Source: Escherichia coli (lineage in GTDB: Bacteria; Pseudomonadota; Gammaproteobacteria; Enterobacterales; Enterobacteriaceae). From it: a stretch of 64,000 nt of DNA. The translations under genes were made by a program, and so were the position numbers. Under the pieces are notes generated by a model that worked only from the letters and a program-made list of their open reading frames with translations, was not told where the DNA came from and did not search any database. Positions within the stretch are counted from its first letter, which is position 1; every line of letters starts with the position of its first letter. The stretch is from the NCBI RefSeq assembly GCF_024502345.1, contig NZ_JALDNN010000001.1; one strand, written 5' to 3'. Below, piece after piece: positions 14,461-19,286 of this stretch.

Positions 14461-15774
<1,314 letters not shown>

Positions 15775-15833: not shown

Positions 15834-16706
15834 TTACCAGCGGCCGGATGCGCCGCCACCTCCAGAAGAACCGCCACCGCCGCTAAATCCGCCGCCACTT
15901 GAGCCTCCACCGGAACCGCTGTTATCTGAATGATAACTTTTACCTGATGCTCTTTTCTGAAGTACACATAAACAGGTAAAGACCATAAATATGGTGAAAG
16001 TAAAAAAGAAGGAAAATACAGCAATGGAAAAAATTTTATCGGAGAACAGGAATAAATCTAAAAGATAGATTGCTGAAATATAGACTCCACTTTTACATGC
16101 GCGACAAAAATTACTGCCTTGATGAAAAAACCAGAAAGGGAAGAACATCACTGCAAATACCCAAAAAATAGCAAAGTAATAATGATCACTGGAAGACGCT
16201 GATTCACTTTCTGAAGGATTAGTCGGATATTGGTGTTGTGAAGTGAGTTGGTTATTCAAAGCGTTTATAGCTAGCTCTAATCCCTGAGCAAATTTTTGTT
16301 GTTTAAATGCGGGTATCATGTTGCTACGGATGATATCTCCAGCCAGAGCATCGGTTACCTTTTCTTCCAGCCCATAACCTACCTGGATGCGGACAGTACG
16401 ATCTGACCAGGCAACAATGATCAGTATCCCATCATTACGTTTGGCATCTCCTAAACGCCAATTGTCAAAAACTCTTGTAGCATATTGTTCAATTGTCTCG
16501 TCTTTGGTTGTGGGAACAATTAATACAGCAATTTGCACTTGGGTATTATTGAAAATAGATTCTAACTTGTGCGTCAGTTCTTTCTTTTCTTGTGAGTTTA
16601 AGCTACTCGTAAGATCCGTAACTTGTTGCTGTAATTGTGGGACAATAGTTGGTTGGGCTGCAACAAAGGAACATACGAAAGTGAACATTAGTATGAAATA
16701 GCGCAT
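15834..16706 (-). CDS. ygcG: TPM-domain membrane protein with glycine-rich C-terminal tail
   Basis: Start taken at internal ATG ([12 protein letters not shown]..., signal-peptide-like), giving 290 aa; hydrophobic segment and SGGG-rich tail. Confidence 0.75.
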
Positions 16707-16719
16707 TATAAATTTCTCA

Positions 16720-16860
16720 TTAAATCTGGATAAATAAATTGACGGCGGCATCGGTAATTTTAGATTCGTTATCATTAAAAACTAATACAGAAAAAATAAA
16801 TATAATTTTGGTGAATGTTTTGACATGATTAAATCCATTTTCTTTATTTTCTTCTGACAT
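16720..16860 (-). CDS. yqcG: small hydrophobic protein (46 aa)
   Basis: 46-codon [49 protein letters not shown], below the 60-aa track cut-off; I recall a K-12 small protein at this position. Confidence 0.5.
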
Positions 16861-16998
16861 AATACGTTACTCCCTTTAATTATTAACGATATGTTTCGCA
16901 TTTTTCTTTAAATCTGCCTGTAACAGAATGTTAATAAGACATGATTGTTGTGGCAGGATCTGCAATAATTAACAATTATCCACTTCACAGAGAATGCT

Positions 16999-17670
16999 AT
17001 GCAGTACCCGATTAACGAGATGTTCCAGACCCTGCAAGGTGAGGGTTACTTTACCGGCGTCCCCGCCATTTTTATTCGTTTACAGGGATGCCCGGTTGGC
17101 TGTGCCTGGTGCGACACCAAACACACCTGGGAAAAGCTTGAGGATCGGGAAGTCTCCCTTTTCAGCATTCTGGCGAAGACCAAAGAGAGTGATAAGTGGG
17201 GGGCGGCGAGCAGTGAAGACTTGTTGGCTGTCATTAGTCGCCAGGGATACACCGCGCGGCATGTGGTGATTACGGGTGGTGAGCCTTGCATTCATGATTT
17301 GCTACCACTGACTGATCTGCTCGAAAAGAACGGTTTTAGCTGCCAGATCGAAACCAGTGGTACTCATGAGGTACGCTGCACACCGAATACCTGGGTTACC
17401 GTATCACCAAAGCTGAACATGCGCGGCGGCTATGAAGTGTTGTCACAGGCACTGGAGCGAGCCAACGAAATCAAGCATCCAGTGGGGCGCGTACGTGATA
17501 TTGAAGCACTGGATGAACTACTGGCAACGCTGACCGATGATAAACCGCGAGTCATTGCACTGCAGCCGATTAGCCAAAAGGATGATGCCACACGTTTGTG
17601 CATTGAAACCTGCATTGCGCGTAATTGGCGTTTGTCGATGCAAACACATAAATATCTAAATATTGCCTGA
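16999..17670 (+). CDS. queE: 7-carboxy-7-deazaguanine synthase (radical SAM)
   Basis: 223-aa ORF with the unusual radical-SAM cysteine cluster CxxxxxxxxxxxxxCxxC (CPVGCAWCDTKH). Confidence 0.88.
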   Translation: MQYPINEMFQTLQGEGYFTGVPAIFIRLQGCPVGCAWCDTKHTWEKLEDREVSLFSILAKTKESDKWGAASSEDLLAVISRQGYTARHVVITGGEPCIHDLLPLTDLLEKNGFSCQIETSGTHEVRCTPNTWVTVSPKLNMRGGYEVLSQALERANEIKHPVGRVRDIEALDELLATLTDDKPRVIALQPISQKDDATRLCIETCIARNWRLSMQTHKYLNIA

Positions 17671-18009
17671 TTAAACATTTATAAGCGTTATAAATGGGTG
17701 GAACCTGTAAAGACTTCTACTCATTTATATTGTTTGTCGCCTCTGAAAACTCCTCCATTTTACCCATCCAGGGCTAATCATTAGCATTCTCTACAAATTC
17801 TGTGGCATTAATTTTTCGCTGGAGTGAAAATTATTGCGGTAAAGTTTGGTAGATTTTAGTTTGTATAGAGTTATTTTAAATATTTACCTTTTTAATCAAT
17901 GGATTAAGTGCTCTTTAACATAATGGATGTGTTGTTTGTGTGATACTATAAAGTTGGTAGATTGTGACTGGCTTAAAAAATCATTAATTAATAATAGGTT
18001 ATGTTTAGA

Positions 18010-18832
18010 GTGTTCCCCGCGCCAGCGGGGATAAACCGCGCGATTTGTTAGCGCCCGTTGCGCCTGGTGGGTGTTCCCCGCGCCAGCGGGGATAAACCGC
18101 GCGAGTTCGTGCGCATGGGGCGCATTTTTGGCGTGTTCCCCGCGCCAGCGGGGATAAACCGCGGCGTTCATGCCCTCCAGCACTGTTACGCGGGTGTTCC
18201 CCGCGCCAGCGGGGATAAACCGTAGTCAAGCGGTAATTCATCGCCTGCAGATCCGAGTTCCCCGCGCCAGCGGGGATAAACCGGCTAATTTACGTAATTT
18301 ACGTGCTATTGCACTGAGTTCCCCGCGCCAGCGGGGATAAACCGTGGGTCATGCCGGTGATCGCCTGCCCGTCGTGGAGTTCCCCGCGCCAGCGGGGATA
18401 AACCATCACCACCGCTTGTCATAAAATTAGCGTCATAGAGTTCCCCGCGCCAGCGGGGATAAACCGGGGAGTGGCACTTCTGGGGTAGCGGCGGCCCTGA
18501 GTTCCCCGCGCCAGCGGGGATAAACCGTCAACGCGCTCAGACGTTGCGTGAGTGAACCAGAGTTCCCCGCGCCAGCGGGGATAAACCGAAATATCCAGGG
18601 CTGGGCTGGAGGCAGACGGCGAGTTCCCCGCGCCAGCGGGGATAAACCGGCGTTGATGTTCTTGCGGGTGTTGCAAATATTGAGTTCCCCGCGCCAGCGG
18701 GGATAAACCGTTTCAGCAGTTCAGCGTAACACCGACGGTCACGAGTTCCCCGCGCCAGCGGGGATAAACCGCCCGGAATGCATTCTGAAGGTTTGCTGTA
18801 TATGAGTTCCCCGCGCCAGCGGGGATAAACCA
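18010..18832 (+). CRISPR. type I-E CRISPR array, 14 repeats and 13 spacers, leader on the low-coordinate side
   Basis: 29-bp repeat G(T/A)GTTCCCCGCGCCAGCGGGGATAAACCG at 18010, 18071, 18133, 18194, 18255, 18316, 18377, 18438, 18499, 18560, 18621, 18682, 18743, 18804; spacers 32 bp (one of 33). Confidence 0.97.
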
Positions 18833-19286
18833 CCATATAACCCGTTATCTCTTTCTCAAGTTTTTATATTAGCAGTACTTGTAATAAGCAACATATCCAC
18901 GTAACACCTCATGTTCAAAATAGTTCTCCATGCCAGAGAGGTTCACAATTATCGATACAAAAAATTAAATTTAATCAAAGTGTTATTTGTATGACTCTTA
19001 AATCGTTAAGAAATTTTAATCTATTATTTTTTTAATATTGAATTAATGCCTGTTAATTTTTTCTTTAGAATAACAGTATATTTTTTAAGCTTGTTATTCA
19101 TTGGTTAAGTAATAAATCTGGAAGTTTGTCTTTGTTTTGAGGCTAATGAGTGGTTTTACATAACCGCCTCTATACGCTGTTGATGAATAGTTCTTATGAA
19201 TAAAGATATCCAGTTCATACTTTAAGTGAAAATTGATAAAGTGCGATTCGTATTGTCTTTAATTCTAAAGACATCGAGTGTAGTTA

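Follow-up and report, generated by a model that had tools for sequence, protein, structure and literature searches.

Validated small membrane proteins of Escherichia coli such as MgrB, MgtS/YneM, CydX and AcrZ, which emerged from the same screens as YqcG, are among the described systems to which YqcG can be compared, being, as it is, shorter than 50 aa, missed by conventional annotation and equipped with a hydrophobic segment. YqcG also shares with them its reported regulation by stress. These proteins, however, have a full-length transmembrane (TM) helix and are generally conserved across enterobacterial genera, whereas YqcG has a hydrophobic run of 10 residues, occurs in only part of E. coli and appears to evolve neutrally. 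The LemA family (PF04011; e.g. WP_001379137.1) offers a second comparison: lemA resembles yqcG in position, orientation, promoter region, 5'-UTR and the 13 nt that separate it from a TPM-domain gene, but LemA possesses a LemA domain (residues 32–193) and a lipobox cysteine, and yqcG starts at another, upstream ATG. A third comparison is with the ORFs of gene birth, or proto-genes, which like yqcG are young, lineage-restricted and translated, with no detectable purifying selection; in yqcG, a frameshift seems to have joined a 5'-UTR to a gene fragment. Unlike proto-genes that arise from non-coding DNA, it would consist mostly of recycled lemA coding sequence, and an adaptive function is only putative. 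Taken as a whole, the ORF is the catalogued gene yqcG and, in evolutionary terms, probably the translated relic of lemA.

We analysed the locus within a 64,000-nt stretch of E. coli DNA (hereafter the window), and the coordinates of its features are given in Table 1. Reading of the sequence, together with a list of ORFs of at least 20 aa, recovered on the minus strand the 46-codon ORF that an earlier note on this DNA had placed upstream of ygcG, complete from ATG to TAA and with exactly the translation claimed. The closeness to ygcG described in that note was also found, at a spacing of 13 nt rather than 14 (TAA at 16720–16722, ygcG ATG at 16704–16706). The gene order is pyrG / eno (14476–15774, plus strand) / ygcG (minus) / yqcG / queE (plus) / CRISPR array / ygcE, and the ORF lies between queE and ygcG on the strand of ygcG, which is the position of annotated YqcG.

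Table 1. Features of the yqcG locus, in positions of the window
Feature	Coordinates	Strand	Remarks
queE, divergent neighbour	16999..17670	+	ORF list, RefSeq
Divergent queE / yqcG promoter spacer, 26–29% GC	16861..16998	.	Conserved across Escherichia upstream of lemA
Shine-Dalgarno (SD) sequence AAGGGAG	16870..16876	-	9 nt 5' of the yqcG ATG
yqcG ORF, 46 codons and TAA	16720..16860	-	RefSeq CDS yqcG, WP_001288227.1; locus 100% identical
Codons 1–12, putatively recruited from the former lemA 5'-UTR	16825..16860	-	Aligns 5' of the lemA ATG in TW10590, L005, E. albertii and E. marmotae
ATG homologous to the lemA start	16824..16826	-	Out of frame in this allele, read within H12–V13
A4 run, site of a 1-nt deletion (A5 to A4)	16818..16821	-	Brings the upstream ATG into the lemA frame
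Codons 14–41, putative remnant of lemA codons 3–30 (signal-peptide n- and h-regions and start of the mature part)	16738..16821	-	Ungapped, in frame
T6 run (16791–16796) and T5 run (16777–16781), frameshift hot spots	16777..16796	-	Variants in APEC E956 and ATCC 8739
Codons 42–46 (LFIQI) and TAA	16720..16737	-	Geometry like the lemA–TPM junction, sequence similarity weak
yqcG–ygcG spacer, 13 nt	16707..16719	-	Weak SD only (GAG) for ygcG
ygcG, TPM-domain protein, downstream cistron	15834..16706	-	Pfam PF04536, E = 2.9e-38; RefSeq annotation

The statement in the same note that a small protein named yqcG is annotated at this spot in K-12 proved correct. The ORF is a RefSeq/PGAP CDS, a Ribo-seq study lists yqcG at NC_000913.3:2905557-2905697 under 'Previously known sORFs', and a TraDIS paper (PMC5821084) credits its identification to Hemm et al. 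(2008, Mol Microbiol 70:1487). As a gene call, yqcG is therefore already known and has stood in the K-12 annotation since 2008. Megablast matched the locus in 5,409 of 5,426 complete E. coli genomes. The protein encoded in the window, WP_001288227.1, is a widespread variant identical at 45 of 46 residues to that of MG1655 (WP_001288228.1), with S33 in the window and Y33 in K-12, and it shares with YqcG of E. coli K-12 (b4682) both its locus (queE / yqcG / ygcG / eno) and its length and differs at that residue only. At the DNA level, identity of the window to MG1655 is 98.7% over 1.9 kb, and to strain CFSAN004176 it is 100%; the genome is K-12-like and is not that of K-12 MG1655.

In thousands of E. 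coli genomes, RefSeq/PGAP names the product 'cell envelope stress response protein YqcG'. Chromosomally tagged YqcG was reportedly detected by Hemm et al. in 2008, with immunoblots said to date from their work of 2008 and 2010, and Hemm et al. in 2010 reportedly saw its level rise under envelope stress (SDS/EDTA). We take this detection and induction, which agree with the product name, to be the basis of the RefSeq/EcoCyc designation. The label suggests a dedicated function; the comparison of loci instead points to a drifting remnant of the LemA signal sequence. A search of the literature, with the primary yqcG papers outside its range, found no connection between lemA and yqcG, and no priority is claimed.

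We then considered the ORF by its length and signals. Mononucleotide shuffling of the 292-nt, 28% GC spacer between queE and ygcG produced an ATG ORF of at least 46 codons in 7% of shuffles, and the length of the yqcG ORF alone is thus marginally unusual (p about 0.07). Such a length would suit a chance ORF in AT-rich intergenic DNA (yqcG has 25% GC, within a trough of 25–29% GC), one that is not meaningfully translated and whose annotation has spread by similarity only. The same explanation could draw on the H-NS flag carried by the region, on the finding that YqcG matched no Pfam family at E ≤ 1 and no NCBIfam model, and on one Ribo-seq data set (unstressed and acid-stressed cells) in which the RIBO statistics for yqcG are blank, a blank that we read as very low footprint counts. 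It is nevertheless very improbable, since the sequence appears to descend from a real coding region, the 5' end of lemA, since a strong SD precedes the ATG at optimal spacing, since tagged protein was reportedly seen on immunoblots, and since the literature treats yqcG as a validated small protein. The status of yqcG as a gene accordingly comes from its SD, its annotation and the published work, and not from the length of its ORF. The AAGGGAG SD is common to the K-12 and B2-like allele classes defined below; lemA-bearing strains read AATGATG or AATGAAG at this position.

Comparison of the window with lemA-type loci indicated that yqcG very likely originated as a translated stump of lemA. The BLAST match between the two ran unbroken from queE through the intergenic region to 16793 (yqcG codon 23) at 84–90% identity and covered about the first 35 nt of lemA. 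A multi-species alignment placed the lemA start codon on yqcG codons 12–13 (CATGTC), and past this aligned ATG yqcG is read in the lemA frame, where the lemA residues are RTFIVIIFIF. Within the stretch homologous to lemA codons 3–30, the proximal part (to 16793) was identical to lemA at 23 of 26 nt and the distal part (16792–16738) at 27 of 55 nt (shuffle p = 3.5e-4), in a register that was the best in the whole 6–9 kb loci; at the protein level, a 19-residue distal segment of YqcG aligned with FNLSGCGYNDIQTYDEQVN of LemA. The upstream ATG from which yqcG starts (16858–16860) opens only a mini-ORF of 2–5 codons in the 5'-UTR of lemA strains, and E. marmotae lacks it.

The 3' end of yqcG is possibly the old lemA stop region (codons 42–46 and the stop codon). 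The arrangement of stop, 13 nt and ATG is the same at the yqcG–ygcG junction as at the lemA–TPM junctions of E. coli TW10590 (L004) and of a divergent Escherichia genome (L005), with a weak local alignment at that point. This shared junction points to a deletion inside lemA that spared the stop codon, although the sequence similarity is too weak to prove it. The Pfam LemA domain starts at residue 32 of intact LemA (32–193, E = 1.3e-48) and none of it is left in YqcG. As judged from these alignments, YqcG is a descendant of lemA and, because the LemA domain is absent, not a member of the LemA family.

The hydrophobic core of YqcG had been taken in the earlier note to suggest a single-pass membrane peptide, a reading that the sequence did not support. 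The longest uninterrupted hydrophobic run measured 10 residues and the best 19-residue Kyte-Doolittle mean was 1.43, against a helix of about 18–20 residues and a mean of at least 1.6 for a TM segment. Its homologue in LemA is the h-region of the lipoprotein signal peptide, MLRTFIVIIFIFNLSGC, and the core would be hydrophobic yet short because it is a decayed form of that region; a lemA origin thus accounts for it. YqcG did not match the lipobox pattern [LVI][ASTVI][GAS]C, having S-V-L-V-F where LemA has L-S-G-C and containing no cysteine at all. Membrane association of YqcG is possible, but is not supported by its sequence.

To describe what fills this slot, we compared 5,426 complete E. coli genomes, which divided into approximately 50% with a K-12-type allele, 20% with a B2-like allele and 27% with a lemA-type locus, where 'B2-like' is a convenience label taken from the sampled ExPEC/APEC isolates and not a phylogroup assignment. 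In roughly half of complete E. coli genomes, yqcG is either absent or disrupted in its frame. The B2-like allele was about 94% identical to the K-12-type sequence. In lemA-type E. coli, the match ended after the first 208 nt of the query and was followed by a gene for a 200-aa LemA family protein and by a different TPM-domain gene. The order queE, lemA, TPM gene(s), eno was found in E. coli TW10590, in the divergent Escherichia genome (L005, with three tandem TPM genes beside lemA), in E. albertii, in E. marmotae and in Klebsiella. Because the same arrangement recurs in L005, E. albertii, E. marmotae and Klebsiella, lemA followed by TPM genes is the ancestral content of this syntenic slot. The distribution of the YqcG peptide was restricted, its named homologues being confined to E. 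coli/Shigella, with many truncated and fused forms.

The two allele classes differ in the homopolymer runs of yqcG. All intact lemA genes and all B2-like alleles had the longer A-run, and A4 was present only in K-12-class alleles, which gives the indel the polarity of a deletion. Through this 1-nt deletion, the remnant comes into frame with the ATG 36 nt upstream, and the lemA ATG falls out of frame. At the T-runs, APEC E956 had T7 in the first and ATCC 8739 had T6 in the second, the latter giving a 28-aa product. The K-12 frame was broken in 7/7 sampled B2-like alleles as well as in ATCC 8739, and ygcG was intact in 7/8 of these strains and frameshifted in APEC E956. Translation from the K-12 start in the B2-like alleles would yield a 28-aa peptide with an unrelated C-terminus in 6/7 and one of 54 aa in APEC E956; PGAP marks yqcG as 'frameshifted' in the six B2-like alleles with an annotated CDS, and LR-28 has no annotated CDS. 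The exact K-12 state at all three homopolymer runs was present in 1,975/5,426 genomes (36%), a figure that is a firm lower bound, with an upper bound of about 51%. Conservation of the frame among relatives, proposed in the earlier note as a check, was thus mostly not observed, since one entire allele class has a broken frame and the gene is absent outside E. coli/Shigella. This argues against a conserved function of the ORF and not against its being the annotated gene.

Another check suggested there, the comparison of synonymous with non-synonymous changes, detected no constraint, with about 11 non-synonymous changes to 1 synonymous change between the allele classes. Between the window and B2-like alleles, codons 14–46 carried 5–7 non-synonymous changes and 1 synonymous change (pN/pS 1.3–1.9) and codons 1–12 carried 4 and 0, respectively; in the same strains, pN/pS was 0.25–0.42 for ygcG and 0.01–0.07 for queE, both of which are under constraint. 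The 11:1 ratio did not differ from neutrality (binomial P = 0.48) and differed from that of ygcG (Fisher P about 0.008), on counts that are small (12 changes) and from strain pairs that are phylogenetically non-independent. The chance of 12 substitutions introducing no new stop is 0.62 without selection, and the retention of an ORF is for this reason uninformative on selection. Intact lemA genes from Klebsiella to E. coli share a conserved leader, NLSGCGYNDIQTYDEQ, which has decayed in yqcG; its conservation in intact lemA indicates that the decay reflects released constraint. The substitutions in yqcG are consistent with neutral drift, in that purifying selection is not detectable, which is not proof that there is none. 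On balance, we lean towards YqcG having no peptide-specific function.

The opposite case would be that of a functional small protein, held at the membrane by its hydrophobic segment and induced by envelope stress, with a target in the envelope or in signalling like those of MgrB and MgtS, the lemA stump having been co-opted. Its RefSeq and EcoCyc name, 'cell envelope stress response protein', and its strong SD speak for such a role, as do the CRISPRi and deletion phenotypes reported, although these phenotypes do not separate the peptide from effects on DNA or from polar effects. At least 1,975 of the 5,426 genomes have kept the exact 46-aa frame across its three slippery homopolymers, but about a fifth of E. 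coli carry a broken frame, about a quarter have lemA instead, and no homologue was found outside E. coli/Shigella. The substitutions between classes, nearly all of them non-synonymous, fit neutrality, and a 10-residue hydrophobic run with a hydropathy below the TM cutoff is at odds with a membrane role. We therefore regard a functional peptide as unlikely. The reported detection of tagged protein and its reported rise under stress leave room for a function of YqcG and count against its being a relic and nothing else.

The B2-like alleles hold a further ORF that counts against yqcG being purely a relic. In 6/7 sampled B2-like strains, the lemA-equivalent ATG, with its own AAGGGA SD, opens a 35-aa ORF (MSKTFTKII...) that follows the lemA frame to the same stop as yqcG. 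Selection may have retained it either so that translation runs on to the ygcG start or for the sake of the C-terminal peptide. The first of these bears on the idea that yqcG matters as a translated leader, whose termination 13 nt before the ygcG ATG would provide translational coupling inherited from the lemA–TPM junction. Besides the identical geometry of the two junctions, the sequence features that such coupling calls for are present, namely a weak ygcG SD (GAG only) and a stop close to the downstream start. An ORF of 46 or 35 codons ends at the same stop in both allele classes despite free amino-acid change, but this is expected without selection at the probability of 0.62 given above for 12 substitutions, and in ATCC 8739 and APEC E956 the ORF ends early or in another frame, with ygcG intact in the former and frameshifted in the latter. 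Coupling through yqcG is possible but doubtful.

The region upstream of yqcG, comprising promoter and 5'-UTR, is the conserved upstream region of lemA. Genomic SELEX assigned constitutive sigma-70 promoters to the queE / yqcG spacer and flagged H-NS binding (PMC3946193); the promoter hexamers printed there for yqcG were not found in the sequence by eye, and only the assignment to the spacer is cited here. Our scan for promoter consensus sequences returned 6 hits against 3.7 ± 1.9 in shuffles, i.e. no excess over expectation, and a PhoP-box scan returned only hits with 3 mismatches, lying in AT-rich DNA. An Rfam scan of 16400–17100 found no RNA family. PhoP-P binds to the 300 bp that precede queE and include the whole of yqcG, and deletion of yqcG in a delta-mgrB strain strongly raised queE transcription (PMC4974570). 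In a CRISPRi screen, yqcG knock-down had an effect under DNA-damaging agents, to which polar effects on ygcG/queE may contribute. A TraDIS study listed yqcG as potentially essential on the strength of sparse insertions (PMC5821084), which may reflect the small size of the gene or H-NS-bound, AT-rich DNA. Essentiality was rejected in view of the natural frameshift alleles, the replacement by lemA in approximately 27% of genomes and the constructed delta-yqcG strain. Polar and cis-regulatory effects on ygcG and queE need to be considered when the deletion, CRISPRi and TraDIS phenotypes are interpreted. For the deletion phenotypes (de-repression of queE), loss of AT-rich regulatory DNA bound by H-NS and PhoP, or a polar effect, would be a more likely cause than loss of the peptide.

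We propose the following history. The ancestral order would have been queE, a divergent lemA, one to three TPM-domain genes and eno. In the lineage of the window, lemA would then have been lost beyond about codon 30, and with it the whole LemA domain, leaving the promoter and 5'-UTR with the codons for the lipoprotein signal peptide directly before the TPM gene ygcG. A later 1-nt deletion in the A-run, confined to the K-12 class, would have brought this remnant in frame with an old 5'-UTR ATG that has a strong SD, creating the 46-aa product. yqcG would now be the first cistron of a yqcG–ygcG transcript made from the old lemA promoter, and its translation may aid that of ygcG, whose SD, 13 nt downstream, is weak. 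As such, yqcG would be a concise natural case of gene decay giving rise to a small ORF. A fuller account, in which a protein was born within the species, as a datable event, from the wreckage of lemA, re-armed by a single base and then co-opted into envelope-stress and PhoQ–QueE circuitry with a function of the peptide, is in its entirety quite improbable.

Searches for the origin of the adjoining DNA covered both the 3' part of yqcG and ygcG. Distant blastn with the 261-nt segment 16532–16792 over the 5,426 E. coli genomes returned only the same two allele classes. Neither for the 3'-terminal 73 nt of yqcG nor for ygcG codons 1–58 was a close DNA source found, which counts against a full reconstruction of the deletion or recombination event. 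A scan of genome contigs with YgcG returned nothing beyond one divergent Escherichia genome and one contaminating contig, and phmmer with the YgcG N-terminus against 1.84 billion representatives returned nothing above 52% identity except fragments of 34–178 aa resembling E. coli YgcG N-termini. The contig from the scan (L006, NZ_RAWK01000597.1, 413 bp, low coverage, labelled 'Corallococcus aberystwythensis') carries a fragment 96% identical to E. coli YgcG and is almost certainly E. coli contamination of a myxobacterial assembly.

The K-12-type ygcG itself looks mosaic. Its codons 59–290 are 94% identical at the DNA level to the third tandem TPM gene of L005, and its codons 1–58 (the 16532–16706 part) have no DNA match anywhere and 28–47% amino-acid identity to any TPM paralogue. 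The ygcG frame is open for 23 more codons 5' of its ATG (16707–16775; ORF 15834..16775), overlapping the 3' end of yqcG, and one naturally frameshifted variant, P0040 (77 aa), seems to run from the YqcG N-terminus directly into YgcG.

Several observations concern the wider neighbourhood. The TPM genes adjoining lemA are often decaying: in E. marmotae, 906 nt without any called gene separate lemA from the TPM gene (L017 4604–5509), and the TPM gene of E. coli TW10590 is annotated as partial (L004 3791–4462). The lemA–TPM cassette appears to be fast-changing between the conserved queE and eno. Tandem TPM paralogues, two or three in number and with glycine/serine-rich C-termini (L005 2173–4873; L016 4623–7602), may be a substrate for unequal recombination and perhaps the source of the K-12 arrangement. 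An IS1 lies directly after the yqcG stop in an O100:H21 strain, truncating ygcG (L014 2589–3286), and an IS4 lies between ygcG and eno in strain LR-28 (L003 3767–5113). On the other side of queE, a CRISPR array occupies approximately 17900–18850 before ygcE, its repeats visible as 'VYPRWRGEH / SPLARGT' pseudo-ORFs, and a CRISPR direct_repeat of variable length is annotated at the same site in related genomes.
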